Source: a virus. From it: a stretch of DNA of 64,000 bases. Below are positions 18,171-56,222 of the stretch, in pieces. The notes beneath the pieces were generated by a model, which saw nothing but the letters and a program-made list of their open reading frames with translations, searched no databases and was not told the DNA's origin. The translations under genes and the position numbers were made by a program. The first letter of the stretch is position 1. Each line of letters starts with the position of its first letter. The stretch is from the UHGV virus genome UHGV-1373641, one strand, 5' to 3'.

Positions 18171-18380
18171 AAAAACACTTCCTCTTTTCGAGATTTTTAA
18201 AATAGATAAAGTAAAAAGTACCTCCCATTCATCCCGAACTGAGGCATTGCCAATATTGACTTTGATAGTGTAAATCATATTTTTACATTTTTGTCAACCC
18301 CTTTTTTAAAAAGAACAAAAAAATTACGCCGTCTCAATTAAGAAAACGACGTAATAATCAGTCATATTTTTTATTAAAAA

Positions 18381-19319
18381 TTATTTTCTAAACAATGCTT
18401 CCAAGGCTTCCAGAGCTTCCCTTTCTGCATTTTCTTTACGTTTGGCAGCAATAGCCTCATCAAGCCATGCGGAAAGTTCTTCGTCCATTTTAGCTTCTTC
18501 TGTGTTTTCAGAAACAGTTTCGCCTTTCGTTTTATCTTCGGCGTTATTTTCGGGAGTATTGTTTTCGGGCTCATTCGACTCTTCGGAAATATTTACGGAT
18601 TCCTCTTGGATGCCCTTGGGTTCTTCATGAGTCTCCTTAGATTCTTCCGGCTGTTTAATTCCTTTGATTTCCGCATCAATATCAGCGGAGATAATGGATT
18701 TAAGCTGGACAACGATATCTTTGGCTTCCTTATTAGAAAAACCTTTTTCACGGAGGAATTGTTCGGCATCTCGCAGAGTGCCGATATTTTTCACCGCGTC
18801 AATAGTAGCTTCCGTATTCATGGGAAACGTCACCACAGACCCTTCAATGAGATGTACTTTATTTAATTCTCGGACAGTATATGCGGAAAATTTCCGACCG
18901 TATTTCTTTCCTTCCACATATTTATAATCTCTGGCTTGATAGCCAATGCTCATGCCCATAGAACCGGGATCTGATTCTTTCAAGACTGTCCACATATCTT
19001 TGCCAGACGTGGTGCTGAAAAGTTTCCCTTCTACATAAAGACCCTTTTCATCCTCACGCATAAGCGTCCATTTTCCAATAGGCTCAAGATCATCAGCGGT
19101 AAGTTTCATGCCGCCATGCTGCTTTAGCATTGGAGGATAATGCCCCTTATTTTTCCATTCTCGGAGAGTGTCTTTAAATGCGCCGGGCATGATAACGTCC
19201 ATACCTTGGTCGACATTATTACAAACGGCGAGATATCCGGAAAATGTATATTGATCTCCGTCATCACTTTTACATTCAAGATCACTAAAAGGGCAAAAAT
19301 GTTTCGTTTCAACTGTCAT
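18381..19319 (-). CDS. Prohead protease (HK97 family) with acidic C-terminal scaffold-like tail
   Basis: Motif DGDQYTFSGYLAVCNNVDQGMDVIMPGAFKDTL typical of HK97-type prohead proteases. C-terminal E/N-rich tail. Confidence 0.8.
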   Translation of the reverse strand: MTVETKHFCPFSDLECKSDDGDQYTFSGYLAVCNNVDQGMDVIMPGAFKDTLREWKNKGHYPPMLKQHGGMKLTADDLEPIGKWTLMREDEKGLYVEGKLFSTTSGKDMWTVLKESDPGSMGMSIGYQARDYKYVEGKKYGRKFSAYTVRELNKVHLIEGSVVTFPMNTEATIDAVKNIGTLRDAEQFLREKGFSNKEAKDIVVQLKSIISADIDAEIKGIKQPEESKETHEEPKGIQEESVNISEESNEPENNTPENNAEDKTKGETVSENTEEAKMDEELSAWLDEAIAAKRKENAEREALEALEALFRK

Positions 19320-19495
19320 TATTTTTTCTCCGAATTTCCTTTAAATTCGCTCTCCAGTTCCGCCAACTCTTTTTTAATGAGTTCATATTCAGTACAGGTT
19401 GGGTCGACGCCTTGCCGCAAAAGCTCCTCTACCCAATCCAAATCACGTTTCTTGAAATAAATAAGCTTAGAAAGGGTGGCTTTATCTTTACTCAT
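19319..19495 (-). CDS. Small hypothetical protein overlapping the portal stop
   Basis: 58-aa ORF (MSKDKATLSKLIYFKKRDLDW...). ATGAGTAA overlap with the portal stop suggests coupling. Confidence 0.3.
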   Translation of the reverse strand: MSKDKATLSKLIYFKKRDLDWVEELLRQGVDPTCTEYELIKKELAELESEFKGNSEKK

Positions 19496-20816
19496 TGTCT
19501 TCGTCATTCCGTTGATCGCCATTGTTCGTCTCTCCGTTTTTAGGTTTTTTCGGAATTGTACTACCTGATTGAGGAATCTGTGCATCCATTACGTCCGCTT
19601 CCTTAACAATGGATTCTACAGTCCTCATAGCTCCCTGCATAAATAGCTCATCACCGCCCTTGACGGGATTCATTTCAGACAGGGCTCGAACTTCGTTAGG
19701 AGTCATATACCCGGAATTGATGGCAGTACGATAAACTTCGGCACGGCTTTTCGCGTCGCCACGAAGCAATCCATCATCCATGAACTTGAAATACAGACCT
19801 TCCTTTCTACGCTGTTCTTCTGTGAGCAAGAATTTATTGGCACTCGTTTCAATACGCCGATACCACGGATCAAGCGTATGAATTTTATGCTGCAAGAAAA
19901 GCTGTTCGGAAGATGCGTACGTTGTGGTCTTCATATAATCAAAGACCATGATTGGCATCACTCCCCAATTTCGACAAAGATCCGCAACTTGGAATTGACG
20001 ATTCTCAACAAACTGAGCGTCCTGATTAGTCATGGACATCTGCTGATATCGAAAATCGTTGCTCAAGATAATTGTCTTATTGGCATTTCTTGAACCGCTA
20101 TATTCTCTCTCCCACGTCTCACGAATACGCTTTCTCTGTTCCTCTGTCAAGTCATTTACTGCGGTAAGAATTCCGGAAGGTTTAACTCCATTCTTTAAAG
20201 ATGTTCCAAGATATTTATCCGAAGACAAAGAAAGACCAATAGCATTTTTTGCCAGTTTGACAGGAGACAGTCCACGAATAACATCGTACCCTCTCCACTT
20301 CAAATGCCACATATCCTTTTCAGGAATTTCAATATATCGCCCGTTTTCGGTCGTTACAAAATATTTTGACCGAAGCCCAAGAGAATCAGATTCATCCATC
20401 TGAACATTAACCATGCCGGGAGGGAAAGGATACATCTCCTTAATCTCTCCACGTACTCTTACAAGCCAAACGAAAGCTTCTCCAGTCAGCGCGAGATGCA
20501 AGCCGAGAGTCTCCCGAAATTCAAATTGACTTTGATATGGATTTGGGCCTTCCTCAAAAAGCCAATACAATGGGTGGTTTTCCGCTGGCTTTCTAGTATT
20601 TCCCTTTTTTTGATACAAACGAAAAGGAACCTGAGCGATACCATTGGAAATAACGGAAACACAAGCCAAGACGACAGAGCAATCAAGCGCTGTCCGCGTA
20701 GTTACTGGAGTACCGGAATCGGAAACAGAGATCGAATTTAAGAACGAATCGTCCATATTCGATTTAGACTCTGAATCCTTTTTTCGGAAGTTATTGAAAA
20801 TATTTAAAAAACCCAT
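19488..20816 (-). CDS. Portal protein (HK97 family)
   Basis: 442 aa. Motifs LGLHLALTGEAFVWLVR and acidic C-terminus. First gene of the minus-strand structural block. Confidence 0.85.
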   Translation of the reverse strand: MGFLNIFNNFRKKDSESKSNMDDSFLNSISVSDSGTPVTTRTALDCSVVLACVSVISNGIAQVPFRLYQKKGNTRKPAENHPLYWLFEEGPNPYQSQFEFRETLGLHLALTGEAFVWLVRVRGEIKEMYPFPPGMVNVQMDESDSLGLRSKYFVTTENGRYIEIPEKDMWHLKWRGYDVIRGLSPVKLAKNAIGLSLSSDKYLGTSLKNGVKPSGILTAVNDLTEEQRKRIRETWEREYSGSRNANKTIILSNDFRYQQMSMTNQDAQFVENRQFQVADLCRNWGVMPIMVFDYMKTTTYASSEQLFLQHKIHTLDPWYRRIETSANKFLLTEEQRRKEGLYFKFMDDGLLRGDAKSRAEVYRTAINSGYMTPNEVRALSEMNPVKGGDELFMQGAMRTVESIVKEADVMDAQIPQSGSTIPKKPKNGETNNGDQRNDEDNE

Positions 20817-21034: not shown

Positions 21035-21610
21035 TTACCACTCATGAATGGATTGTTGTCTATGGTGGCTTCCTTTATGATTTAAAAGGATTTCGTCAAT
21101 CACAGCGTTGTATCCGTATTCATCCCCAATAATATAGAATTGAGAAGATAAATTAGTGTGCTTTTCAAAAATTTCTTTAAGAATTACGTCTTTCTCTTTT
21201 GCTTCCGTTTCCGTTTGGATTCTACCTACCATAGAATATTTTTTAACCCTTTTAATAAAAACATCCATTGTCTTTACGGAGCGGTGCAGATTGAGGATCA
21301 ACTCGGATAAAGACGCGGAATAATATGACCTAGGAGCGATATATGCCAGTCCAATCAAAATAGGCGAGTCCGTAATAATATAATCGACTTTTCCAAGAAG
21401 CCTATCTACTCGATGCCATTGCTGCGCAGTAACGAGCAATTGATCATTCAGTAGGTCGACGCTATTGTCCCATACACAATCTTTAGCAAACTCAGTTACA
21501 AGCTCGCAAGAAATCCCACACAGCTTTAGCTCCGAGAATATATGGGCGGCTCCGGTACTTTTCCCACATCCGGGGCCTCCATAAAGATTGATAACTTTAG
21601 TATCCTTCAT
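21035..21610 (-). CDS. P-loop NTPase, putative nucleoside/nucleotide kinase
   Basis: Walker A LYGGPGCGKST at the N-terminus, ~190 aa, sits in the nucleotide-metabolism block. Confidence 0.5.
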   Translation of the reverse strand: MKDTKVINLYGGPGCGKSTGAAHIFSELKLCGISCELVTEFAKDCVWDNSVDLLNDQLLVTAQQWHRVDRLLGKVDYIITDSPILIGLAYIAPRSYYSASLSELILNLHRSVKTMDVFIKRVKKYSMVGRIQTETEAKEKDVILKEIFEKHTNLSSQFYIIGDEYGYNAVIDEILLNHKGSHHRQQSIHEW

Positions 21611-22386: not shown

Positions 22387-22830
22387 CTACAACTTTACGA
22401 TTCTTTGGTTATTCGATGCCAACTTTATTCCGAATAAAGGTTCTATATAAGATGGTTTTGTTTTATCATACATTCCGAGCTTGGCATATTTTAACAGGTG
22501 GTGAAGCGGCTTAGGAATTTTTTCATATCTTGTCCATAACCAAATCTCCTGAAAATACGCATTCAATCGAATGATAAAGTTTTGAAGAGAAATCAAATTC
22601 TGATCAAGAGGTTCTCCTCCCAAAATCCAAACTTTTTTTACTAATAGTTCACTGTCTTTAAAAAGTCCAGAATTTTCTTGAGTTTTAAGCCATTCCTGAT
22701 ACGGAATCCCCTGATTGAATTCCCAAAGTTCTTTGTTATGACATCCCTCACAATGAGGTGCCTTACATCCGGAAAGATATATTTCCAGTGCCCGATGAGC
22801 CAGATTAAATTCTGTGCCCGCTACTCGCAT
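22387..22830 (-). CDS. nrdG: Anaerobic ribonucleotide reductase activating protein (radical SAM)
   Basis: Cys cluster CKAPHCEGCHNKE and GGEPL motif typical of NrdG activases. Overlaps the nrdD stop. Confidence 0.75.
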   Translation of the reverse strand: MRVAGTEFNLAHRALEIYLSGCKAPHCEGCHNKELWEFNQGIPYQEWLKTQENSGLFKDSELLVKKVWILGGEPLDQNLISLQNFIIRLNAYFQEIWLWTRYEKIPKPLHHLLKYAKLGMYDKTKPSYIEPLFGIKLASNNQRIVKL

Positions 22831-25766
22831 CTCATTTCTTCCTTACCATAGAACTGGCGATTGGGACGGTCTTTTTCACGGCGAACCTTATTCCAATTTT
22901 TTACATTAGTAAAGAATCCGACAACACGGGTAATCTCCTCAGACCATTCTTTGCCACAGGTAGGGCATCTGTCGGAACCCACCCAAGTATGGTTATCATC
23001 GCAGATCCGAAGAAGATAGTTTACTGCCCAATAAACAACGCCAGACTTTGCGGCATAGATGATAAGGTCTTCGATGTTCTTCGTGTCCTCAATTCTCTCA
23101 CCAACATTGACATGGCAAATCGCTCCACCCGAAAACAATCCATCGAATTTTCCTTGGAGTCTAATACGGTCGAGCATATTGGCTTTAGCGATAAGCGGAA
23201 TAAACTGATTCGAATAGAAGGATACTCCACAATCGTAACCAAGGACTTTATCTTTCTTCGCGAGTTTCACAGAGGATGACTCGGCAGGAACCTGTTCACA
23301 ATTATGAGGAGCTTGATACAATTCTTGAGCTTCATCAATCCAAAGGTTAATCTGTTCAAGAGTCCGCATCACAAGATCTTGCCCATCCTCATCCAAAATG
23401 TCCTTTCCGAGGATGCTCACTGCTTCATAGAGTCCGGTGACTCCAAAAGTCGAATATTGTTTAGTAATATCCATGTATCCATGCGTGTACAAAGGCGCTG
23501 CGCCAAGGTCAATTCGACGCTGTACAATCTTGCGTTTAGCGTTATTGATTTTCGCTGCGGTAAAAAACGCATCCCTAAGCTTATCAATAAACACGCCCTC
23601 ATCTCCCCCCGACTGCATTGCAAGGCGAGGGAAGTTTGCCGTCACAACACCAAGAGATCCAATTTTTGTGCTTCCGGAGCCGAAAGAATTAAAATACTCA
23701 TTTTTCCTGTCCGAGCGCAAACGACAGTTATGGGTGATTACGCCATTGGGCAAAGTGAAGTAAGGTTCTTCCGGATTCTGCATTTCAAAACAATATACGT
23801 ATTCTTCGTCGTAAGGAACTTCTTCGACACTTTCTACCTTAAAATACACAGAGTTGTTTCTTACCTTGTATACGCCCGGATGCTCACGACGATTCTTCAA
23901 ATCATACCAACGGATACAATATAGGGGGTAATTCCGAGAATAGTTCTTTCCGCGAATCTCCACCAACTCATCAGTGCGATCCGACAGGTCGATGTTGCTA
24001 ACCATACCCAGAGAAGTAAGGATGGCTTCTCCAGTTTCGATAAGCTCTTTAGACGTAGAATAAATACGATTGCTATTTCCTCCGTCAGTTGCATACCATC
24101 CGGCGATGATGCCCTTGCGGAACTCTGTGGATTGAAGAAGAATGTTCATATCAAACGACTTCTCTTCCGCATAAGAACCTTTAACATACTTCCCAATAAT
24201 ATCATATATCGCCTTAGAATAAATTTTGGCAAACACAACTTTGTTCCGGGACGGATTAATATGGAAGTCCTCTTCAATACCCCAATCTTTTGCGGCTTGA
24301 ATAAGCGTGTCGATACAACCGCGCTTCGCTTCACTCAAAGAAAAAGTCACATCGTAACTTTCGACGCCCTCTCTTGCATATCGGCTTCCATCGCCAGCAT
24401 AGGCCCCAATGAGATACCCCTGAGCATAGGTAAGGTGCTCATCTTTTTCATTATAAGAGTTAAGCTCCCTCATACTGAATCCGATATAATCATCAGTAGT
24501 CAAATCAACAGTAGTTTTATCCCCAGAGAGAGTATAGTTGATATGATTATCCGTTACAACAAATTCCTTCTTATTAGAAAGAACGACCTTATACATCTTA
24601 TGGCCCAAAACAGGAAGCATCACGGGCTTTGCCTTGACCCAAGACCCATTGTGGAATACAGCGAAGTTCTTCCTATAAAGATCATAGTTGGATGATTTTA
24701 CGATATCACGAATATCCGCAAGAACCACGCCATTACTGGATTTCGTAAGGACTTTCTGCCCTCCAGAAAAACAGCATGAACTCAAAGTTGACATTTTGCC
24801 ATTATACATATTGATAAATCCGAACTCTTTGTTCTTCTCAGCAATGAACTTTACAAAGTCCTTATCTACGATATTTCGGTCGTCATCAATAGAAAAACAA
24901 GCTGTCGTTACGGGAAACGTAAGAGGCGTTCTCCGCATCTCTTCATTCATGGCGTCGAGGAAAAGCCCCTGCAACTCATGAACAGTTTCAGGATTAGCGG
25001 CTTTTCCGTCCATCATGTAATCAGGACAGAGGGATTCAAGGAAATTACGGTCGAATACAGAAAGATTGGAAAATGGGCTTTGATTTCCCCGGAATTCCCA
25101 ATTCACCGTATAAATAAAATTGATAAGTTTTTCCTTTACATATGTTTTATAATCATCAACTTTAATCCGACCATCGTATCCGATCTTTTTCATTTTTTCT
25201 ACGAAAAGAGATGCCACAATAAGAAAATCTGCAAATCCGGTAGCTCCCAAGGTTGAGTTTGCAGCAACAACCATAAACTGTTCTACTTGACGCACAAACG
25301 TCTCCAAAGATTTAGGAGCGCTCACACGAACTCGCTTAGATACGCCTTCCAAACCATTAAGAGCGATATCATAAGTAGAATAATTAAAACAATAGGGAAG
25401 GGCTACATCAGTGGAGTCGTTAACATAAAGATCACCACGAAGCACTTTTTCCACGACAGTATTAGCTTCAAGGAGCCCATAATCCTTTTTAATCTGTTTC
25501 CAGAGGAGGAAATAACTATTGTACTTTTTAATGGGCTTCGGCATTTCATGATTATACTCAATAGATGTCCGCGCACATACATTGGCATTAGAGTCTACGG
25601 AAACATCTGCCGTTGTAGTATCCGTATTAAAAAAATCTTTAGAAAACTTATTGATATCCATCTGATCGCCAATTCCATCCAAGGTCAAAAAGTCCCTGCC
25701 ATATTTAGCGATAAGATACATCATAAGGTCATAGAACTCTTGATCCCAAGTAATCTTAATATGCAT
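22821..25766 (-). CDS. nrdD: Anaerobic (class III) ribonucleoside-triphosphate reductase, interrupted by an intein
   Basis: N-terminal ATP-cone-like region. C-terminal CPTCGKEW zinc ribbon and TRVVGFF glycyl-radical region. 981 aa against ~630 expected. Intein junctions SSC/CFSGGQ... and ...VITHN/CRLRSD. Confidence 0.85.
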   Translation of the reverse strand: MHIKITWDQEFYDLMMYLIAKYGRDFLTLDGIGDQMDINKFSKDFFNTDTTTADVSVDSNANVCARTSIEYNHEMPKPIKKYNSYFLLWKQIKKDYGLLEANTVVEKVLRGDLYVNDSTDVALPYCFNYSTYDIALNGLEGVSKRVRVSAPKSLETFVRQVEQFMVVAANSTLGATGFADFLIVASLFVEKMKKIGYDGRIKVDDYKTYVKEKLINFIYTVNWEFRGNQSPFSNLSVFDRNFLESLCPDYMMDGKAANPETVHELQGLFLDAMNEEMRRTPLTFPVTTACFSIDDDRNIVDKDFVKFIAEKNKEFGFINMYNGKMSTLSSCCFSGGQKVLTKSSNGVVLADIRDIVKSSNYDLYRKNFAVFHNGSWVKAKPVMLPVLGHKMYKVVLSNKKEFVVTDNHINYTLSGDKTTVDLTTDDYIGFSMRELNSYNEKDEHLTYAQGYLIGAYAGDGSRYAREGVESYDVTFSLSEAKRGCIDTLIQAAKDWGIEEDFHINPSRNKVVFAKIYSKAIYDIIGKYVKGSYAEEKSFDMNILLQSTEFRKGIIAGWYATDGGNSNRIYSTSKELIETGEAILTSLGMVSNIDLSDRTDELVEIRGKNYSRNYPLYCIRWYDLKNRREHPGVYKVRNNSVYFKVESVEEVPYDEEYVYCFEMQNPEEPYFTLPNGVITHNCRLRSDRKNEYFNSFGSGSTKIGSLGVVTANFPRLAMQSGGDEGVFIDKLRDAFFTAAKINNAKRKIVQRRIDLGAAPLYTHGYMDITKQYSTFGVTGLYEAVSILGKDILDEDGQDLVMRTLEQINLWIDEAQELYQAPHNCEQVPAESSSVKLAKKDKVLGYDCGVSFYSNQFIPLIAKANMLDRIRLQGKFDGLFSGGAICHVNVGERIEDTKNIEDLIIYAAKSGVVYWAVNYLLRICDDNHTWVGSDRCPTCGKEWSEEITRVVGFFTNVKNWNKVRREKDRPNRQFYGKEEMRCE
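23727..24773 (-). mobile_element. Intein with LAGLIDADG homing-endonuclease domain inside nrdD
   Basis: Block A CFSGGQKVLT. Two LAGLIDADG motifs (LIGAYAGDGS, IIAGWYATDGG). Terminal HN followed by +1 Cys. 349 aa; removing it restores the conserved SCCRL region. Confidence 0.75.
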
Positions 25767-25850: not shown

Positions 25851-26306
25851 TTACACACCAGTGCTGCCAAACCCGCCAGTGCCTCGAACGGTTGTGGAAA
25901 GCTCCTCAGTCTCCACCCAATCGACAGGAAGATACGGAACAATGACAATCTGGCAAATCCGATCGCCCGTTACATAAATTTTATTCGCAAGGCTAGGATC
26001 TTGGAAGTAATTCTTGGGAATACGGAAGACAGCCTTGATCTCTCCGCGATAATCGGAGTCAATGACGCCTACGCAATTAGAGAGCGTCATTTCCTTCTTG
26101 AATACAGAAGACCGAGGAAACACGAGGCCCACGTACCCCGCAGGGATTTCCATACCGATTCCGGTTCCATAGGTAACAAGCCCTTTATCCCAATCGATAT
26201 CGCAGGTGACTGCATGGAGGTCATATCCAGCGGACCAATCGGTTCCACGGAGGGGCATACTGGCATTTTCATGAAAACGCTTGAAGTTGATAATGTGATT
26301 GCTCAT
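25851..26306 (-). CDS. dut: dUTP diphosphatase
   Basis: Motifs RSS..., AGYDL, GVIDSDYRGE typical of trimeric dUTPases. 151 aa. Confidence 0.85.
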   Translation of the reverse strand: MSNHIINFKRFHENASMPLRGTDWSAGYDLHAVTCDIDWDKGLVTYGTGIGMEIPAGYVGLVFPRSSVFKKEMTLSNCVGVIDSDYRGEIKAVFRIPKNYFQDPSLANKIYVTGDRICQIVIVPYLPVDWVETEELSTTVRGTGGFGSTGV

Positions 26307-26320
26307 GTAGATTCTCCTTA

Positions 26321-26974
26321 TTAGTTAAAGATTGTATATCCGATAAACATCTTCTCAGGATAGGGCATTTTCCCATTTTCAAGAAAAATGATTCCCTTTA
26401 TAATCTCGGGGAGATGTTTAAGAACATTAATTTTTTCATCCGGGGATACTCCTACGATATTAGATAAATTACGAACATATTTTTTTGTATCGTTTTCGTG
26501 AGGAGGTCCCATTCTATACACCATGCTCCGCAATGTGTCAAGGCCGTTCTTGTGTTGATAATTCTTTAGATTTTTTGCACAAGCCCGGATACCATACTCA
26601 GGGGATTCAAAAATGATGAACTTGCCATCACTTCCAATTTGACCGTCCCATTTCGTATTCTTCGAGCTTTTGAGATTACAAGGATTGTTATTCCGCAATC
26701 CTCTAGTATCTCCATACGTCTCTTTTTTATCTTGAGACGTATTTTCCTTTTTTTGATAAGGGGCTTCTAACTTCTGCTTCATAATAGCATTTTCAGAGGC
26801 CATACTTCCTAACGCTGTACTTAAAAATTCTATCTTATGATGAAGTTCCTCTATCTGAATATTCTTACTTTTTCTAAAATTTGTAAGTGTTACATAATTA
26901 TGTACTGAATTAGCAATAAATACGCTAATTAAAAGAGCTATAAGAATCCTATCCAAATAATTGAATTTAAACAT
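26321..26974 (-). CDS. N-terminally membrane-anchored protein with coiled coil and C-terminal domain carrying an RNNNPCNL motif
   Basis: TM helix ILIALLISVFIANSV. Coiled-coil 40-90. C-terminal ~120-aa domain (GLRNNNPCNLK...). Possible cell-wall-acting function, speculative. Confidence 0.35.
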   Translation of the reverse strand: MFKFNYLDRILIALLISVFIANSVHNYVTLTNFRKSKNIQIEELHHKIEFLSTALGSMASENAIMKQKLEAPYQKKENTSQDKKETYGDTRGLRNNNPCNLKSSKNTKWDGQIGSDGKFIIFESPEYGIRACAKNLKNYQHKNGLDTLRSMVYRMGPPHENDTKKYVRNLSNIVGVSPDEKINVLKHLPEIIKGIIFLENGKMPYPEKMFIGYTIFN

Positions 26975-27139
26975 CCACCCTACCTTAATATTTTTTATCT
27001 ACTATTTTCAATTCTTACGTTTTCCCAATATTCTCTTTCGGCTTTTTCACATTTTTGAAAACCCCAAATGAAAACAGAAACAAAAACCGCCAATAAAATC
27101 ATACCTTTGATTTTCATAATAACTATTTTCTTTCTGTGT

Positions 27140-27745
27140 TTATTCATTATTACTCTCTCCCTTTACGGCAGGGATAAACCTATCATCAAGATACATGAGA
27201 ATCTGGTCGCAGAAAAACCTCCATTCTTTCAGCTTATGGTTCTTGCGCTGATGGTACATATTCCGAAGAACCTTATAATTAGTACATACGATTCTCCGCT
27301 GCAAAAATCCTTCGGGGAGATTTTCTTTTACACCTTCAAAGTCCTTTTCGTCAATCATTTTATTCAGAATATCGATAATTTCCTGACGAACTTTGTCGGA
27401 GAAATCGTCCTTCGTGAGATGCCGCTTCATAATCGTGTGCATCGTAGACTCGGACTGTTTGGATGTTCCCACACGATAGGTATCGAATTGCGACCAGAAA
27501 TAGCGGGGTGCAGTAATATCGATCCAAACTACGATACTTTCTAAAAATTTATTATGCCCTCCATCAAGTCCAGCAAGTTTATGCGCACGAGCAGAAAGTT
27601 TATTTAAAGTATTTTCGGCTTTCACCCTCCCATCGCATTCGATGTCGCCTATAGTTTTATCAGACGTAAGGCCATAAGACAAACCCATCCCAAGAAACGC
27701 AGCGACGTGTCCAGCTTCCCCAATAAACTCAACTTTCATGTTCAT
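27140..27745 (-). CDS. ThyX-like (flavin-dependent thymidylate synthase fold) protein with divergent active-site motif
   Basis: Start MNMKVEF at 27745 (SD GAAGGA). Segment GGHNKFLESIVVWIDITAPRYFWSQFDTYRVGTSKQSES aligns from memory with ThyX [38 protein letters not shown]. The RHR-x7-S motif is replaced by TYR-x7-S. C-terminal NYKVLRNMYHQRKNH..W matches the ThyX NARSLMNFLNLR...W region. Confidence 0.5.
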   Translation of the reverse strand: MNMKVEFIGEAGHVAAFLGMGLSYGLTSDKTIGDIECDGRVKAENTLNKLSARAHKLAGLDGGHNKFLESIVVWIDITAPRYFWSQFDTYRVGTSKQSESTMHTIMKRHLTKDDFSDKVRQEIIDILNKMIDEKDFEGVKENLPEGFLQRRIVCTNYKVLRNMYHQRKNHKLKEWRFFCDQILMYLDDRFIPAVKGESNNE

Positions 27746-27758
27746 TTGTTTTTCCTTC

Positions 27759-28880
27759 TTATGCTTTAAAGTTATATACTGGCTTAATAGTGAACAAGGC
27801 TTCCACCGATTGAAGATTGTTACGAATCTCTGATCCATCCTTGTATGCCATAGGGCTTTCGTCAAGAGTAGAAGTATTTACGCAAGAAGAATAAATACCT
27901 TCCATTTCATTTTTAAAATCATTCATATCAAGACTGCGCTTGGCTTCACCTCTGCTTAGTCTACGTCCAGCTCCATGAGGTGCGGAATAGTTCCAATCTT
28001 CAAGCCCTTTACCAAAACCAAAAATAATACCGTCTCTCATATTCAAAGGGATCATAAGAGCCTGTTCTTTTTTAGCGGAAACGGCTCCCTTGCGCAGCAT
28101 GAACACATCATTGTCAATACGTTCTATATAGTTATGAACGGTTTCATAAACATCATCTTTCTTAATCCCAATGTGTAGCATGATATCGTTAATGATCGCC
28201 TCACGATTCAAAGAGGCATAATATTTCATGATTTCCATATCATACATATATTCATCGAACATCTCCCCTGAAAGATACGCTAGATGTTTGGGGGTGCCCG
28301 GACATTCTTTAATAGCGACATTTTGATAATAAGTAGCTACTTCTTTTCCAATATTCCTAGAACCAGAATGTACGGTAAGGAAATAAGAAAAAGTACCATC
28401 GAAATTATCGGATTCCCCTATTTCAATAAAATGATTCCCTCCCCCCAAAGTCCCAATACTGTGCTCCGCACGAGCGATATTAACTTCATTACGACACGCA
28501 AGCATATTCAAATTGATGGCGCTAACCAATTCATGCTTGTCGTTACGAATATTAAATCCTGCGGGAATATGCTTTCGAATAATTCGATCAATTTCTTCAA
28601 AAAAGCTATTGTTAAGTTTATCGTCCAAAGTAAATTCACAGGAAAGTAATCCACAACCTATATCGACTCCGACAAGATTAGGAACGATTTTCTTGTTTTC
28701 GATAGTCATCGTCGTTCCAATAACGCATCCAGCGCCAGCATGTACATCTGGCATAATGCGAATCCTACTACCTTCGGTGAACTCTTGATTACACAATTCG
28801 ATAATTTGAGCCATAGCTGTCGGCTCAACATAATCCGTGAAAACCTTAGCTGTACTTACTGAGCCTTTTACTTCAAACAT
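27759..28880 (-). CDS. rtcB: RtcB family 3'-phosphate RNA ligase
   Basis: Motifs MPDVHAGAGCVIGTT, GGGNHFIE and HGAGR. 373 aa. Confidence 0.85.
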   Translation of the reverse strand: MFEVKGSVSTAKVFTDYVEPTAMAQIIELCNQEFTEGSRIRIMPDVHAGAGCVIGTTMTIENKKIVPNLVGVDIGCGLLSCEFTLDDKLNNSFFEEIDRIIRKHIPAGFNIRNDKHELVSAINLNMLACRNEVNIARAEHSIGTLGGGNHFIEIGESDNFDGTFSYFLTVHSGSRNIGKEVATYYQNVAIKECPGTPKHLAYLSGEMFDEYMYDMEIMKYYASLNREAIINDIMLHIGIKKDDVYETVHNYIERIDNDVFMLRKGAVSAKKEQALMIPLNMRDGIIFGFGKGLEDWNYSAPHGAGRRLSRGEAKRSLDMNDFKNEMEGIYSSCVNTSTLDESPMAYKDGSEIRNNLQSVEALFTIKPVYNFKA

Positions 28881-29527: not shown

Positions 29528-32458
29528 TTATTTTCTATAAAATTCTCCCCTCCATCCTTCGGCCTTTACTGGCAGACCTTCCGCCCATTGAGGAAGCTTG
29601 CACATGATATTTTCAAATTCCTCGACAGACCCAAACCCTTTAGGAACCTCAGCAATGATTTCATCGTGAACATGAAACACTACCGGATAGTTGGCTTCTT
29701 CGAGATTGAACATCGCATTCACCATCAGATCTCTACAGAAAGCTTGTGTAACATTTTCTGAAAGTATGAGATGGTTAAGCGGCCTTCTCACAAATTGTTT
29801 TTCTGGCGTCAAGGTCATCGCCGTAACAAGCTTCTTGAACGCTGGCTTTTCTGGAGTAGACCATGCCATCTCCACATCTTCAAGTTTAGGCTCGAAGTAG
29901 AAGAGGAACCTGCCACTAGGGAGCTTCATAAGGAGGAATCTCTTATAGTATTGGAATGATACTCCACGATAAGAATAAATTCCGCCCTTATTCGTCATAG
30001 CCATGACAGCAGCTTCAACGAGTTTGTGCCAAAGCTTAACCGTCATTGGGTGCCCGTCTCTCCATGCAGCAATAATCTTCTTTCCTTCCTCTTCATCAAT
30101 GCCCATTCTATCAGCTCCAAAGCGAAGGAACGCGCCATAACCACCTCCGTATCCACAGTTATGCACAATGCGTGGACCGCAGGATGTATGTATCATAAAC
30201 CTGCTTTTATCTCCACAATTCAAAAGATCATAAACTTTTTCTATTTTAGTATAACCATCTCTATTAGATAAAATGCTCCCAGTAAGAATAATTTCATCGC
30301 TATCATCTTTTTTGATAAACTTTAAAATCGCCATATTTATTTTATTATAGTCCTTAATAACGGCTTCACTCACTTTAATATTCAGATAATTTTGAGCTGT
30401 TGAATACTTAGAAAAAATCGTAGCTAAAAAGACGATAATGGAGCATACATATTTAACTTTATCTTCAAGACTCGTGTTCCTTAAGCTTTCACCCAAGTAT
30501 ACATAAACACCTTTTCTACTTTTAGAATCAACAAAGGATACATTAAAGTCATCTTCGTCAAAATCGGAAAGAATTACTTCAATTCCCATTTCAGCTATAG
30601 TTACTTTTACTGGGTATTTCTTCAAACTATAAATAATTTTATCTTGAACTTTTGAGATTTGATAACTAACCCAACTAGAGAATATTTGATATTGCTCGCT
30701 AGAATAAACTTTCCCATCTCCTAGCCATTTACACAATTCAATAGCTGCATCGGAGTCTATCCAAATATTTTCATCCATCAACCATTTTTGATCAGGCGTA
30801 GATTCTACTCCCAAAAAATTAACGATTTCTTTAATACCTTGGCAATATGCTCCATCTGTCAAACACCAGTTTTCTCCATCCCATACATAATCATCTTTAG
30901 TTATGTCGACGATTTTTTTTATTCCATAGCTCGTATAAACCATTGTATCCGCAGAGAAGCAAGCCAACGTAGCCGTCTTACCTACTTGACGCTGCTTCTT
31001 ATCCACATCTTCATATTTCACCCCATAGATAGTCGTAGCTGCAACTTTATACGGGTCGAGGCCATCCCTAAAACCTTGAAGAACATACTCTTCGCCAGCG
31101 AGATATGCCAATGCTCGGGCTTCAATCCCACTATAGTCGGCACAGATAAAATCGTATCCTTTTCTAGCGTGAATCATTGCGCGAAGGCAATCGGAGGCAA
31201 GGACTTTAGGGTCTTTCCAATACTGCTGGATAAGATCTAAATCCCCGCTAGCTGCAAGTTCGATATCCATTTCACTGATATCATAATTATCCAAAGGCTT
31301 GGAACCTTCGGGTATATTCATATTATTTGTTGAAGGTCTAGTCAAATTTTGCGGTTGAATAAGAGCACCAGCAAATCTTCCCGTAGAGGCTCCATGATAT
31401 ATCATCGTTCCATGCGCCCTGCCATCATAGCACGAAGTACAAAGCATGGTCTGATATTTTGCCGTAGAAGACATGGCAATAGTCTGACGAATCTCAAGGA
31501 ATCTACGAACATCGGAGGGGAGATCAGTCCGTTCAAGAAGGTCGGAGATAGCTTGCTTGCTTGCCGAATCAGTATCAACCCCACGAGATTGAAGCCATTC
31601 AATAATAGACTTGGAAGACTTCATGGTAGATACAGCACCATACGTAATCTCGGAAGCTTCCTCCGTCAAAATATCTTCTACTTTATTAACCATATCCATA
31701 ATTTTGACCGCGTGAAACCTGTCAATTCCTACTCCACGGTCATTGATCGTCTGGTCGAGCCGCCACACTTTAAGCTCCCGCTCAGGGATAGGAGGAAGCT
31801 CCATAAAAAGAACTTCTTCCGCAACCACGTCCTGTCGACAATATTCAACATATCGTTTAAACATTGGCTCGTCACAAGGATAGACAATATATTGATGGTA
31901 GTTTTTAATGGTAGGAATGCCACCTTTTGAAAGCACGGCATAGACGTACTCTTGAGTAGCCTTAGCCTTTTCGGGGTCTGGAAATGCGGAAAGTTCGGCT
32001 TTACGGAATTTCCTAGGCTTTGACATTTTCATCATCAGCTTATGCCCTTCATTATCCTTCTGAGGAGCGTCTTTTCGCCAAACCTTTACCGCTTGTTCCA
32101 GTTTACGGGGAAGGTTGCACATAAGGGCCTGAGACATCGTGCATCGAATTTTCTCTAATGGCAATGGCTTAAACCAGAGAGGCTCCATCTTGAACTTCCA
32201 AATGGCTCTTTCGAAAGGGGCGTTATGTGCTGCAATCTCTTCACAATTATTAATAATATCCTGCAATTCATCGTCGCTCAATTCAGTATCAAGAAAATGC
32301 CTATATGCCGGAGCTACCCATACACGAGCCTCCTGTCCACATATACGGACGGCAAGCATCATCACCTCAGTATCAGGGTGCGCAGCATATGCGTAAGCTC
32401 CACAGGTTTTAATATCTACAGGGGACCTCGTTTCAAAGTCAATTACGGATTTCATCAT
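29528..32458 (-). CDS. Family A DNA polymerase with N-terminal DnaQ-like 3'-5' exonuclease, interrupted by an intein
   Basis: Exo I IDFETRS. Motif A CADYSGIEARALAYLAGE. Motif B RQVGKTATLA / CGYGGGYG split by a 268-aa insert. C-terminal HVHDEI motif C. Confidence 0.85.
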   Translation of the reverse strand: MMKSVIDFETRSPVDIKTCGAYAYAAHPDTEVMMLAVRICGQEARVWVAPAYRHFLDTELSDDELQDIINNCEEIAAHNAPFERAIWKFKMEPLWFKPLPLEKIRCTMSQALMCNLPRKLEQAVKVWRKDAPQKDNEGHKLMMKMSKPRKFRKAELSAFPDPEKAKATQEYVYAVLSKGGIPTIKNYHQYIVYPCDEPMFKRYVEYCRQDVVAEEVLFMELPPIPERELKVWRLDQTINDRGVGIDRFHAVKIMDMVNKVEDILTEEASEITYGAVSTMKSSKSIIEWLQSRGVDTDSASKQAISDLLERTDLPSDVRRFLEIRQTIAMSSTAKYQTMLCTSCYDGRAHGTMIYHGASTGRFAGALIQPQNLTRPSTNNMNIPEGSKPLDNYDISEMDIELAASGDLDLIQQYWKDPKVLASDCLRAMIHARKGYDFICADYSGIEARALAYLAGEEYVLQGFRDGLDPYKVAATTIYGVKYEDVDKKQRQVGKTATLACFSADTMVYTSYGIKKIVDITKDDYVWDGENWCLTDGAYCQGIKEIVNFLGVESTPDQKWLMDENIWIDSDAAIELCKWLGDGKVYSSEQYQIFSSWVSYQISKVQDKIIYSLKKYPVKVTIAEMGIEVILSDFDEDDFNVSFVDSKSRKGVYVYLGESLRNTSLEDKVKYVCSIIVFLATIFSKYSTAQNYLNIKVSEAVIKDYNKINMAILKFIKKDDSDEIILTGSILSNRDGYTKIEKVYDLLNCGDKSRFMIHTSCGPRIVHNCGYGGGYGAFLRFGADRMGIDEEEGKKIIAAWRDGHPMTVKLWHKLVEAAVMAMTNKGGIYSYRGVSFQYYKRFLLMKLPSGRFLFYFEPKLEDVEMAWSTPEKPAFKKLVTAMTLTPEKQFVRRPLNHLILSENVTQAFCRDLMVNAMFNLEEANYPVVFHVHDEIIAEVPKGFGSVEEFENIMCKLPQWAEGLPVKAEGWRGEFYRK
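30158..30961 (-). mobile_element. Intein inside polymerase motif B
   Basis: Block A CFSADTMVYT. Terminal IVHN followed by Cys. Internal LCKWLGDG resembles a single degenerate LAGLIDADG motif. Excision restores KTATLACGYGGGYG. Confidence 0.7.
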
Positions 32459-40140: not shown

Positions 40141-40686
40141 ATGATTATAAAAGACCTGCGGCATTGCCCTGAAAAATACGATGTCATTTACGCGGACCCG
40201 CCTTGGAGCTATTCCAATAAAGGTCTTAATGGCTCGGCAGAAAAACATTATTCTACTATGAACATAAAAGATATTGGGGAGCTTCCCGTAGAATCCATTA
40301 GTAAAGACAACTGTGTGCTTTTCATGTGGATGACATATCCATTAATCAAGGAAGGTCTTTGGTTGATGGAAAAATGGGGATTCAAATATAAGACAATCGG
40401 TTTTCAGTGGATTAAGCTGAATCGCATTAATAAAAAACCTTTCTTCGGATTGGGCAATTGGACTCGCGGAAATTCGGAGCCTTGCTTTATAGGAGTGAAA
40501 GGCAAGATGGCTCGGAATTGCGCTGGAGTACATCAAGTCATAATGTCTGAGATTGAGAAACACTCTAAAAAACCAGATGAAGCCCGCCACAGGATAGAAC
40601 AGCTTGTCGGCCCGGATTGTAGGAAAATAGAGTTGTTCGCTAGACAGGAATACAATGGTTGGGATTGTTGGGGAAATGAAATCTAA
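40141..40686 (+). CDS. MT-A70 family N6-adenine DNA methyltransferase (DPPW motif)
   Basis: VIYADPPWSYSN catalytic motif. 181 aa. Confidence 0.75.
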   Translation: MIIKDLRHCPEKYDVIYADPPWSYSNKGLNGSAEKHYSTMNIKDIGELPVESISKDNCVLFMWMTYPLIKEGLWLMEKWGFKYKTIGFQWIKLNRINKKPFFGLGNWTRGNSEPCFIGVKGKMARNCAGVHQVIMSEIEKHSKKPDEARHRIEQLVGPDCRKIELFARQEYNGWDCWGNEI

Positions 40687-53759: not shown

Positions 53760-53849
53760 TGGCGGACAAGGTAGGATTCGAACCCACGGACGCTCCTGCG
53801 CCAACGGTTTTCAAGACCGCCCCAATAAGCCTGACTCTGGCACCTGTCC
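53760..53849 (-). tRNA. tRNA-Ser (anticodon UGA), class II with long variable arm
   Basis: Cloverleaf folds. Anticodon arm CGGTCTTGAAAACCG. TTCGAAT T-loop. CCA encoded. Confidence 0.8.
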
Positions 53850-53864
53850 TGTTTTTAATTCTTC

Positions 53865-53941
53865 TGGCTGTGGGAGACGGGATTGAACCGCCAACACCTT
53901 GATTAACAGTCAAGTGTTCTACCAAACTGAACTATCCCACA
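53865..53941 (-). tRNA. tRNA-Asn (anticodon GUU)
   Basis: Cloverleaf folds. Anticodon loop CTGTTAA. CCA encoded. Confidence 0.8.
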
Positions 53942-53950
53942 ATATTTTTT

Positions 53951-54027
53951 GGTACTACCGATGGGATTCGAACCCAATACTGTAGGGTTTTTAAGACCCT
54001 TGCCTCTACCTGTTGGGCTACGATAGT
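53951..54027 (-). tRNA. tRNA with anticodon UAA (Leu by anticodon) but short class I variable loop
   Basis: Acceptor ACTATCG/CGGTAGT. Anticodon arm AGGGT-CTTAAAA-ACCCT. Variable loop only ~5-6 nt. CCA encoded. Confidence 0.6.
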
Positions 54028-54031
54028 ATGA

Positions 54032-54107
54032 TGGTAGACCCGATAGGACTCGAACCTATAACTTCCCGGTTATGAGCCGGATCTTCTGCCAATTGAAGTA
54101 CGAGTCC
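54032..54107 (-). tRNA. tRNA-Met or Ile2 (anticodon CAU)
   Basis: Cloverleaf folds. Anticodon loop CTCATAA. CCA encoded. Confidence 0.75.
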
Positions 54108-54244
54108 ATTAAAAATTTTGATTATGGGAGACGCAATAAAGGAGGAAATTGCGTCTCCCGATTCGAGGAGCAAACGTATGAATGAATTGATGGAAACCTT
54201 ATACTAAACTTAAATCAGAATGTCAAGAACTTTTTTAATAGTTT

Positions 54245-54511
54245 TTAAGGTCGTTCGATCATACTGGGAACAAGTGTTGCGGAATAAATGATTTTTTCTT
54301 CATCCGGGCCATCCTCGTTCTCAACGAAGGCTTCAAATTCGATCTTACTGACACTAAAAAGGACAGTAATAGCGTCAATCTTGTCGCCTTTCTTAAAATC
54401 GCCAATATCCATGTTCAAAGTGCAATCATAAAACACAAAGTCGAAAGTGTCAAGCTGATCCCAACCTTCACAAGAAAACATTCTTTCAAAGAAATCAGTG
54501 CTCGTGTCCAT
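54245..54511 (-). CDS. Small acidic hypothetical protein embedded in the tRNA cluster
   Basis: 88-aa ORF. Confidence 0.3.
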   Translation of the reverse strand: MDTSTDFFERMFSCEGWDQLDTFDFVFYDCTLNMDIGDFKKGDKIDAITVLFSVSKIEFEAFVENEDGPDEEKIIYSATLVPSMIERP

Positions 54512-54537
54512 CTATGGATCTCCTTTTTATAGATTTA

Positions 54538-54614
54538 TGGTGCGACCGATGGGGCTTGAACCCATAACTTGCCAATTAAAAGTCGGCTACTCTTGCCAAT
54601 TGAGTTACGGTCGC
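54538..54614 (-). tRNA. tRNA-Lys (anticodon UUU)
   Basis: Acceptor GCGACCG/CGGTCGC. Anticodon loop CTTTTAA. CCA encoded. Confidence 0.8.
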
Positions 54615-54701: not shown

Positions 54702-56222
54702 TTATCTGATACGAGCATACCTTTCCGAGCCAAGGATGTCAAGCATAACTTCGATAGGTTTTTTGTTTTGTACTGCCATCTTGAACGCAGAAGGCGACAG
54801 ACCGGAAACTATCGTTGCTCCCACCTCATCTTTCTGGACAGGAAGATTTCTTCCTCGACTATTCACATTCCAGAATACGATGGTAGGCAGCGAGTATCCA
54901 TGTGCTCGGAAAGATTCTTTCATGTATTCAAAAGCTGTCTTCGAATAGTCCGTAGATTCATTAAACTCCATATCGGAAATGATATACAGAGTTTCCGGAA
55001 GGTCTTCTTGCTTCAATTTATGCCTCATGGCGGTGGAGAGAATCAAAGAAAACACAGCTTCAATGTTCGTGCCATAGCCCCAATTGGCGGAAACCATGTT
55101 CGAGAGTTTTTCTCGCATCGTATTTCCGTAGATTTTTACAAGCTCCGGTTCGGTACTGAAAGTAAAGAAATGGTCTTTGAACGGGCCTTTGCTTCTTTCA
55201 GCGAAATACAATCCAAGAGAAATAGCCACGTCAAGAGCCGTGACACTTGAAGATTTGGATACTCGGGACAGCATAGAGCCACTGGTATCTACTACGCAAA
55301 TAGCATTTTTGTTTCGACCAGTATAGTCCGGCAACGCTCTCCACATTTCATCGTAGATATCTTCATATTCCTCTCCGTCCCGCTGAACACCATAAACAAT
55401 GTCGTAGGGGTAAAGAACGCTCGAATTTACCTTTTTCTTGCCGCGTTTAACAGCTTCGGTATATTCTGAAAAACCAAAAGGGTCATTTCTTGTAAATGCC
55501 TTTGTGTGTTTCATCAAAGCATAGGAAGGGAGCTTGCTATAATCAATGTCGCTCCATTTTTTCGAGCACATTTCCTGTTCGACAATATTCAGATGCTTTC
55601 GGATATTTACGATGGTCTTGCGGCATTTCTTCTCGTTCCCATCGAAAATATCGTCCACAAGTTTCTTTGCGAGGTTTTTTCTCCATTGAGAGGACACACT
55701 GTTCTTTAGCGGAAACCATTTCGCGCAAAGAGTCAGATTTTCGTAATGTCCGAGATTGATTTTACCTTCATCGAGGTCGAGAATCGTTTTCACGAAATTA
55801 ACCATAAAATCATATATGGATTCGTTACTCGGATAGATAGCCTCCATAATCCAGAAAAAATCATCCCATCTGCCATATTTGGGGATTTGTCCGATGTTAT
55901 AGATGATATCGTTTCGGTCGTCAGTATAACCGTTTTTGATAATATCATACAACATACAGACCCTAAAAATGTCCCTTTCACCCTGTCCGCCGCGAACATC
56001 ACGCAGATAGAAGAGGTTTTTCCTTGCCAAACTCTTATTTTCTTCTAATGCTTCCTCAAAAAGCTCCTTCGCGGAATTGAGGGAGTCTCGTTTAGCGGAG
56101 GCCAATGCGAAAAAGTTCAGATTGGCATTATCGGAATCAGAATAGGTAAGGCATCCGTTTTCCGTAACAGAATTAAGATTTTTGTTAAATGCCGAAATAA
56201 AAGGCGAAATTTTCGTACTCAT
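54702..56222 (-). CDS. Ro60/TROVE-like protein with C-terminal vWA domain (DUF2828-like)
   Basis: 506 aa. MIDAS VVDTSGSMLSRVSKSSSVTALDVAISLGLYF and later TLYIISDMEFNES align from memory with human Ro60 AVDVSASMNQRVLGS... and DVFIVFTDNET. N-terminal ~300 aa helical (TROVE-like). Confidence 0.5.
   Translation of the reverse strand: MSTKISPFISAFNKNLNSVTENGCLTYSDSDNANLNFFALASAKRDSLNSAKELFEEALEENKSLARKNLFYLRDVRGGQGERDIFRVCMLYDIIKNGYTDDRNDIIYNIGQIPKYGRWDDFFWIMEAIYPSNESIYDFMVNFVKTILDLDEGKINLGHYENLTLCAKWFPLKNSVSSQWRKNLAKKLVDDIFDGNEKKCRKTIVNIRKHLNIVEQEMCSKKWSDIDYSKLPSYALMKHTKAFTRNDPFGFSEYTEAVKRGKKKVNSSVLYPYDIVYGVQRDGEEYEDIYDEMWRALPDYTGRNKNAICVVDTSGSMLSRVSKSSSVTALDVAISLGLYFAERSKGPFKDHFFTFSTEPELVKIYGNTMREKLSNMVSANWGYGTNIEAVFSLILSTAMRHKLKQEDLPETLYIISDMEFNESTDYSKTAFEYMKESFRAHGYSLPTIVFWNVNSRGRNLPVQKDEVGATIVSGLSPSAFKMAVQNKKPIEVMLDILGSERYARIR

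Follow-up and report, generated by a model that had tools for sequence, protein, structure and literature searches.

It is on the minus strand of a siphovirus-type phage genome or prophage (41.7% G+C) that the gene described here is found, and by the window we mean the whole stretch of 64,000 nucleotides of this DNA that was analysed. The minus strand carries, in this order, tail, capsid, protease and portal genes, a P-loop kinase, NrdG, NrdD, a dUTPase, a transglycosylase-like gene, the ThyX-like gene, RtcB and DNA polymerase A, followed past the polymerase by genes for RdgC-like, HU-type DNA-binding and Enc34-type ssDNA-binding proteins, a DUF2800 nuclease and an SNF2 helicase. The ThyX-like gene (27140..27745, minus strand) encodes 201 aa from an ATG at 27745 to a stop at 27140, and was assigned to PHROG 6721, and to what we call the TYR-type clade, through Pfam Thy1, the PHROG profile, a structural model and Foldseek. 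A good ribosome-binding site, AAGAAGGA, lies 5' of the ORF, 13 nt separate the RtcB stop from its ATG, and its 3' end shares 8 nt with the start of a 50-aa membrane ORF. A longer version starting from a TTG at 27865 would enter RtcB and is unused by the homologues. A nucleotide search of the 5 kb around the gene against the phage collection gave no match.

The genes that the earlier note had placed in this vicinity, namely NrdD/NrdG, dUTPase and a P-loop kinase, were each matched by profiles, and all lie on the minus strand. The dUTPase (25851..26306), two genes downstream of the ThyX-like gene, scores 75 bits with Pfam dUTPase and 108.6 bits with TIGR00576 (cutoff 102.55). The anaerobic ribonucleotide reductase NrdD (22821..25766, 981 aa) contains a LAGLIDADG intein (CFSGGQKV…VITHN/CRLRS, the slash marking the junction) which sits in the SSC/CRLRS cysteine loop, while the NrdD of two close relatives (contigs L003 and L006) is intein-free with 632 aa; its activase NrdG occupies 22387..22830. 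The P-loop nucleotide kinase (21035..21610) is thymidylate-kinase-like, matching PHROG 2107 “thymidylate kinase” with an E value of 1.8e-11 and Pfam AAA_28 below its cutoff. Directly upstream of the ThyX-like gene lies the RNA ligase RtcB (27759..28880, Pfam RtcB 191 bits), which we regard as operon context and do not think to be functionally linked to it. Between the ThyX-like gene and the dUTPase, and thus within the nucleotide-metabolism block, lie two membrane genes (26321-27147, minus strand), the 50-aa transmembrane ORF and a 217-aa membrane-anchored transglycosylase/endolysin-like protein (PHROG 873, E 3e-43).

Contig L003 carries a ThyX-like protein 98% identical to that of the window in an identical gene order without the inteins. 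The DNA polymerase A of the window (29528-32458, minus strand, 976 aa) also has an intein-like insert (KTATLA/CFSADTMVY…RIVHN/CGYGG), and in L003 (5427-8724) the polymerase is split around a GIY-YIG homing-endonuclease ORF, so that two different selfish elements have entered one and the same gene. Elsewhere in the window are a cluster of five tRNAs (Ser-TGA, Asn, Leu-TAA, Met and Lys-TTT; 53760-54614, minus strand), which together with RtcB suggests a means of countering host anticodon nucleases, a 506-aa DUF2828/DUF7788 protein (54702-56222, minus strand), and an MT-A70-type adenine methyltransferase (40141-40686, plus strand), no other DNA-modification gene having been identified in the window.

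The relationship of the 201-aa protein to ThyX, which had been proposed from the letters of the DNA, is well beyond chance. Pfam Thy1 (PF02511) gave a marginal pass (27.0 bits against a gathering cutoff of 24.8, E 4.7e-6), and many members of the family score under this cutoff. The AlphaFold2 model, built with 43 homologues, has a mean pLDDT of 91.2, and the best 50 Foldseek matches listed from the PDB are all ThyX of Thermotoga maritima or Helicobacter pylori, with probability 1.0, TM scores of 0.55-0.69 and about 15% identity. Against predicted viral structures, the top two matches are “uncharacterized proteins” of the same ThyX-like family, followed by annotated phage ThyX. A single-sequence search of the PDB gave chance matches to centromere protein C only, and the family profile found ThyX chains only, weakly, with E of about 1. 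The PHROG 6721 profile matches the protein with E 9.6e-38, and all the listed invariants of the clade are present in it (K66, T89-Y/F-R91, S98, S100-T-M-H103, Q149-x-R151, Q166-R167, H170 and W175). The NCBI thyX equivalog TIGR02170 gave 17.1 bits against a cutoff of 87.9, and therefore the protein is not a canonical ThyX.

The residue mapping on T. maritima ThyX that the earlier note had called for was made by aligning a ThyX profile to the family profile with hhalign and cross-checking with HMMER, the reference sequence being identical to PDB 1KQ4/1O26. Both programs place H64 on H53, E69 on E58, Q86 on Q75, T89-Y90-R91 on R78-H79-R80 and Q97 on E86; hhalign alone places K140 on R147, N156 on N163, K158 on R165 and H170 on H178; and R167 falls on R174 by hhalign, with independent agreement from a HMMER run on the M. 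tuberculosis enzyme. The altered triplet T89-Y90-R91 is encoded at 27473..27481 (codons ACC TAT CGT), and the motif G62-G-H64-N-K66-F-L-E69-S70, with the H53 and E58 equivalents, at 27536..27562. The C-terminal half, L143-P-E-G-F-L-Q149-R150-R151...N156-Y-K158...Q166-R167-x-x-H170, lies at 27236..27319, and the loop S98-E99-S100-T101-M102-H103 (27437..27454), which replaces ThyX E86-x-S88-x-R90-Y91, between these regions, all on the minus strand. The flexible substrate loop is the sole point of disagreement, as HMMER inserts S98 and pairs S100 with S88, M102 with R90 and H103 with Y91, and hhalign leaves the loop unaligned. The earlier note had described a change from RHR-x7-S to TYR-x7-S; the TYR triplet does lie on R78-H79-R80, but the residue at the x7 spacing is E99, the serines standing at x6 (S98) and x8 (S100). 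Its broader description, a ThyX paralogue with a changed signature motif among nucleotide-metabolism genes, agrees with what we found.

ThyX R174 is the uracil-O4-binding Arg, and N163 and R165 bind FAD; the positions of the latter two vary in the family (N/S and K/M, respectively). The equivalents of His53, Arg174 and His178 are kept, with H64 in 443, R167 in 480 and H170 in 477 of 481 members. For T. maritima ThyX, hydrogen bonds to dUMP are reported from R78, R80, S88 and R90 (PMC3498832); in the M. tuberculosis enzyme the corresponding residues are R95, R199, R87, S105 and R107, and Y108 forms a lid (PMC6514825). A further reported task of R78 is to stabilise the flavin in its anionic reduced form, and activity is reported to depend critically on S88 and Y91 (PMC11940539). 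Among these dUMP contacts, the window protein keeps R80 (as R91) and probably S88 (as S100), has T89 for R78 and has lost R90, which is M102 in the HMMER alignment and unaligned in that of hhalign. Y91 is changed to H103, a Tyr being present there in 16 of the 481 members. R81 provides an Arg at the position of M. tuberculosis R87, and the family has extra invariant basic residues, namely K66, R81, K140 and R150/R151.

The family to which this protein belongs is large. A word-indexed search returned 3,661 relatives, mostly unnamed and otherwise named hypothetical protein, and scanning 1.84 billion cluster representatives (50% identity) exhaustively with a profile gave 3,409 at E <= 1e-3 and 679 at E <= 1e-30, most members having about 170-220 aa. 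PHROG 6721 is listed in PHROGs as of unknown function, the members seen are annotated hypothetical or uncharacterized, and our literature and database searches found no paper, solved structure or curated name for the family. The GenBank phages which carry it infect Desulfovibrio, Clostridium, Clostridioides, Enterocloster and Fusobacterium, all annotated copies being “hypothetical”, and the cellular carriers are metagenome-assembled genomes of Bipolaricaulota, Anaerolineae, “Thermotogae”, Lentisphaerae, Syntrophales, Sedimentisphaerales/Phycisphaerae, Saccharibacteria and other anaerobes, on contigs of up to 1 Mb. Cellular proteins about 50% identical to that of the window share its invariant residues. 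We thus found the family only in anaerobic bacteria and their viruses. Canonical ThyX, present in 1,393 GenBank phage records, mostly of Mycobacterium, Synechococcus and Gordonia phages, has a host range complementary to it.

We also found a sister clade, about 30% identical to that of the window, with R-Y-H or R-Y-R at positions 89-91, in Clostridioides phage phiCD211, Clostridium phage XP41-N3, Fusobacterium phage Fnu1 and 475 IMG/VR stretches; its loci include L257-L336, L002, L171, L173 and L175, and a four-sequence alignment served for the locus search. Both clades share the S-S-Q-S-x-M-H loop, the Q-R-x-x-H-x-x-x-W motif and an NrdD/dUTPase context, whereas the sister clade keeps an Arg at the ThyX R78 position and is without K66 and usually without Q-R-R.

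A first conservation count, made on 152 distinct members taken from 164 loci, showed T89 in 150 of them and near-invariance of T89, Y/F90, R91, S98, S100, T101, H103, T104, K66, E69, Q149, R151, Q166, R167, H170 and W175. Across 481 distinct sequences of both clades, S98, S100, T101, H103, Q166, R167, H170, W175 and H64 are kept in 443-481 (S98 in all, S100 in 479), and some 25 polar positions show little or no variation. These counts point to strong purifying selection, and the pattern looks like that of an enzyme active site and not like that of a decaying paralogue. Position 66, whose ThyX counterpart is T55 of the H53-E58 loop, covaries with position 89: K66 accompanies T89 in 390 of 393 sequences and R89 in none of 76, the rare Q, A, S or E at 89 all occur with K66, and the single K89 sequence has Q66, these counts being driven mostly by two large clades. 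Our reading is that the positive charge of ThyX Arg78 may have been relocated to Lys66 instead of being lost, the covariation suggesting that K66 and T89 lie close together, and in that case the exchange of R for T is milder than it appears. Given this compensation, and given the R-Y-R or R-Y-H of the sister clade, what separates the family as a whole from ThyX is the replacement of the S-x-R-Y loop by S-T-M-H, together with the invariants of its own.

It is well established that homing inteins insert into those catalytic motifs of important proteins that tolerate least change. At least six members of the family have an insert of about 330 aa in the central region, and in the three whose sequence was read (P0256, P0292 and P0318) the insert is a LAGLIDADG intein that splits the loop precisely at the E99/S100 junction (…KQSE / C…N / STMH…). 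For comparison of the insertion site, no intein-bearing canonical ThyX was present among the matches listed.

The genomic company of the family was examined in 80 viral loci and in 80 loci from GTDB species genomes, whose neighbours were clustered and then counted with profiles. A dCTP deaminase is directly adjacent on the same strand in 37 of the 80 cellular and 8 of the 80 viral loci, and present anywhere in 37 and 17, respectively; it can stand directly against either side of the family gene and is a bona fide enzyme (TIGR02274, 139 bits against a cutoff of 92.8). The pyrimidine biosynthesis genes pyrE (adjacent, 19/80) and pyrD (nearby, 18/80) accompany the cellular copies and none of the 80 viral ones, whereas dUTPase (17 viral and 3 cellular loci), class II ribonucleotide reductase (18 and 2) and NrdD (16 and 0) keep company mainly with the viral ones; the sister-clade loci have NrdD in 29/80 and dUTPase in 20/80. 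Operon orders in the cellular genomes, with X as the family gene, include pyrD-pyrE-X-dcd and argS-dcd-X, and tRNA synthetases, ParA and Jag flank these loci, which are therefore chromosomal and not prophages. Desulfovibrio phage ProddE, a T7-like podovirus unrelated to the window, combines the family gene with NrdD/G, a DR2231-type (dUTP-pyrophosphatase-type) NTP pyrophosphatase and a kinase.

Three routes lead to dUMP, by way of dCTP deaminase, dUTPase or dCMP deaminase. In addition to the first two, which are neighbours, the third is joined covalently in one protein of 331 aa (P0312), whose ThyX-like domain continues into a C-terminal dCMP/cytidine deaminase domain (PF00383, 56 bits) within a single ORF (1844-2839 of L177, a metagenome contig of 4.7 kb), so that all three dUMP-producing enzymes are tied to the ThyX-like family. 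Neither the fused deaminase domain nor E. coli Tmk, used as phmmer queries, brought up further neighbours. Apparent N-terminal fusions in high-GC metagenome-assembled loci were discarded, as their long ORFs are stop-to-stop artefacts running out of frame through pyrE.

The control consisted of 80 viral loci taken around relatives of the partner dCTP deaminase and scored for the family gene, for canonical ThyX and for ThyA. The family gene occurs in 8 of them, six times overlapping dCTP deaminase by 9 nt and twice lying 383 bp upstream, and ThyX of the canonical type occurs in 18, with 11 ORFs overlapping dCTP deaminase on the same strand and one more at 184 bp; ThyA is found in 4, and in none of the 80 is the family gene present together with a canonical synthase. 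The family and the canonical ThyX or ThyA thus share one neighbourhood in these loci and never co-occur there. When both clades are taken together, a canonical synthase is present in 1 of 164 viral family loci against 22 of the 72 family-free control loci, with a Fisher p of 6e-12 that is indicative only because the loci are related. The single exception, contig L034, has the family gene on one strand and, at a distance of 10 kb on the opposite one, an RHR-type ThyX that is cut by the contig end, with a TnpB (IS605 OrfB) element between the two (18187-20493). Neither ThyA nor ThyX was found in the 64-kb window, in the complete pCD1602_4 (132.5 kb) or in MT835485 (70.6 kb), the last two also carrying the family gene; neither is listed in the annotation of ProddE, neither lies near the gene in the sister-clade loci, and ThyA similarity was absent from the window and from every family locus scored.

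We put at about an even chance the reading that the window protein is a working enzyme from a separate and so far uncharacterized branch of the ThyX superfamily, one that stands at the thymidylate-synthase position of strict anaerobes and their phages and most likely converts dUMP to dTMP; the narrower claim of a dUMP-linked enzyme in the thymidylate-synthase slot is firmer. In this proposal NrdD and NrdG would make the deoxynucleoside triphosphates, dUTPase would make dUMP (dCTP deaminase or dCMP deaminase serving in other carriers), the ThyX-like protein would convert dUMP, most likely to dTMP, by a flavin-mediated methylene transfer of the ThyX type, and the P-loop kinase would phosphorylate the product; the fold, the family membership, the conservation, the gene linkage, the fusion and the mutual exclusion with canonical thymidylate synthases are observations, and dUMP as substrate, flavin as cofactor and dTMP as product are what we infer. 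The active site would be rewired and not dead, the Arg78 cation being supplied by Lys66, the equivalents of Arg80, His53, Glu58, Arg174 and His178 being kept, and S-x-R-Y having become S-T-M-H. Against this reading stand the absence of R78 and R90 out of the four dUMP-bonding residues, the changes of Y91 to His and of R78 to Thr, the variation at the FAD positions, the failure with TIGR02170 and the presence of both genes in L034. A bolder form of it, which we regard as tentative and rather unlikely, is that the family provides a ThyX-derived, anaerobe-specific third route of thymidylate supply with a different redox partner, one-carbon donor, activation or C5-modified dUMP product, and that it is the sole thymidylate synthase in Bipolaricaulota, Anaerolineae, Sedimentisphaerales and many phages of Clostridia and Fusobacteria.

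Among the alternatives, the one that survives best is that pyrimidine nucleotides are indeed the substrates but the chemistry differs: the protein might take dUTP or dCTP directly, hydrolyse nucleotides or serve another pyrimidine-pathway step such as that of OMP decarboxylase. The substrate loop is completely remodelled, with R78, R90 and Y91 all absent, the extra invariant basic residues could hold more than one phosphate, and the gene follows pyrE in 19 cellular loci in which pyrF is not among the flanking ORFs annotated. On the other hand, it is specifically ThyX and ThyA that the family excludes, and R167, the equivalent of the uracil-O4-binding Arg, is invariant. A replacement of OMP decarboxylase, as the pyrD-pyrE-X order might suggest, was rejected, given that the carrier phages lack the de novo UMP pathway, which would make such a role senseless in them, and have the gene beside ribonucleotide reductase and dUTPase. 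Nor is the protein a substitute for dUTPase, with which it co-occurs. We consider a different reaction unlikely overall, although it stays a serious rival because of the new substrate loop.

The earlier note had also offered a non-canonical nucleotide for DNA hypermodification; it could be 5-hydroxymethyl-dUMP or another C5 adduct made from dUMP. Phage homologues of thymidylate synthases have repeatedly gained new C5 chemistries, among them the dUMP hydroxymethyltransferases (PMC8989533) and a ThyA homologue that makes 5-hydroxy-dCMP (PMC13326640). A hydroxymethylase would likewise fill the thymidylate-synthase slot and exclude ThyX and ThyA, and R78 and Y91, which serve the reductive chemistry of ThyX, are changed here. 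Nevertheless, members with the same invariants, about 50% identical to the window protein, do housekeeping duty in the pyr operons of bacteria, the clustered neighbours include no conserved kinase, transferase or glycosyltransferase suited to be a hypermodification partner, and MT-A70 is the only modification gene of the window. The housekeeping copies and the missing partners weaken this proposal, and we hold it to be quite improbable. Weaker still, and very improbable in our judgement, is the inactive regulator, a non-catalytic nucleotide-binding protein such as a dUMP/dTMP sensor or a regulator of dCTP deaminase or ribonucleotide reductase, since the loss of key ThyX residues and the tight pairing with dCTP deaminase, 9-nt overlaps included, are outweighed by an enzyme-like number of invariant polar residues (the roughly 25 counted above), by inteins targeting the central motif, by the occurrence of the family gene without dCTP deaminase in the window and in 80 of 80 sister-clade loci, and by a mutual exclusion with thymidylate synthases that would go unexplained.

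Thymidylate synthesis, which is essential, is generally regarded as resting on two enzyme families, ThyA and ThyX. ThyX is a drug target because it is absent from humans. The window protein shares with canonical ThyX (T. maritima TM0449, M. tuberculosis Rv2754c and PBCV-1 A674R; PF02511, TIGR02170) the fold and the equivalents of H53, E58, Q75, R80, R174, H178 and probably S88, and the two groups occupy the same slot beside dCTP deaminase, dUTPase and ribonucleotide reductase. In contrast to canonical ThyX, it has TYR for RHR and S-T-M-H for S-x-R-Y, with R90 absent and His in place of Y91, and it is shorter; the family further differs by its own invariants (K66, S98, T101, Q149, R151, Q166 and W175) and by its occurrence in anaerobes and their phages only. 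It thus has the ThyX fold and probably a role in the same pathway, while departing from the motifs that define ThyX. What we describe is a large ThyX-derived clade, annotated only as hypothetical, which lacks residues held necessary for ThyX catalysis and yet stands in the thymidylate-synthase position, its carriers including phages that infect anaerobes of the gut and mouth. Should the clade be active, it would change the view of the residues required for ThyX chemistry, fill gaps in the annotation of pyrimidine metabolism in several uncultured phyla, and explain how many phages of anaerobes complete the dTTP pathway.

A precedent for changed chemistry in the same slot is given by the ThyA-family phage paralogues, that is, the dUMP/dCMP hydroxymethyltransferases and the 5-hydroxy-dCMP synthase of RB69/DLP3 (PMC13326640), but these have the unrelated ThyA fold and are tied to hypermodification clusters, which are absent around the window gene. 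Phage ThyX variants from IMG/VR which abut dCTP deaminase also have an altered RHR triplet, namely KHV (L193, L195 and L230), KHR (L203, L210, L238, L243 and L247) and RHH (L201 and L252). Unlike the window protein, which scores about 4 bits on the ThyX profile, these variants keep the S-x-R-Y loop and score 66-156 bits, so that phages depart more freely from the textbook ThyX motif than is usually stated.
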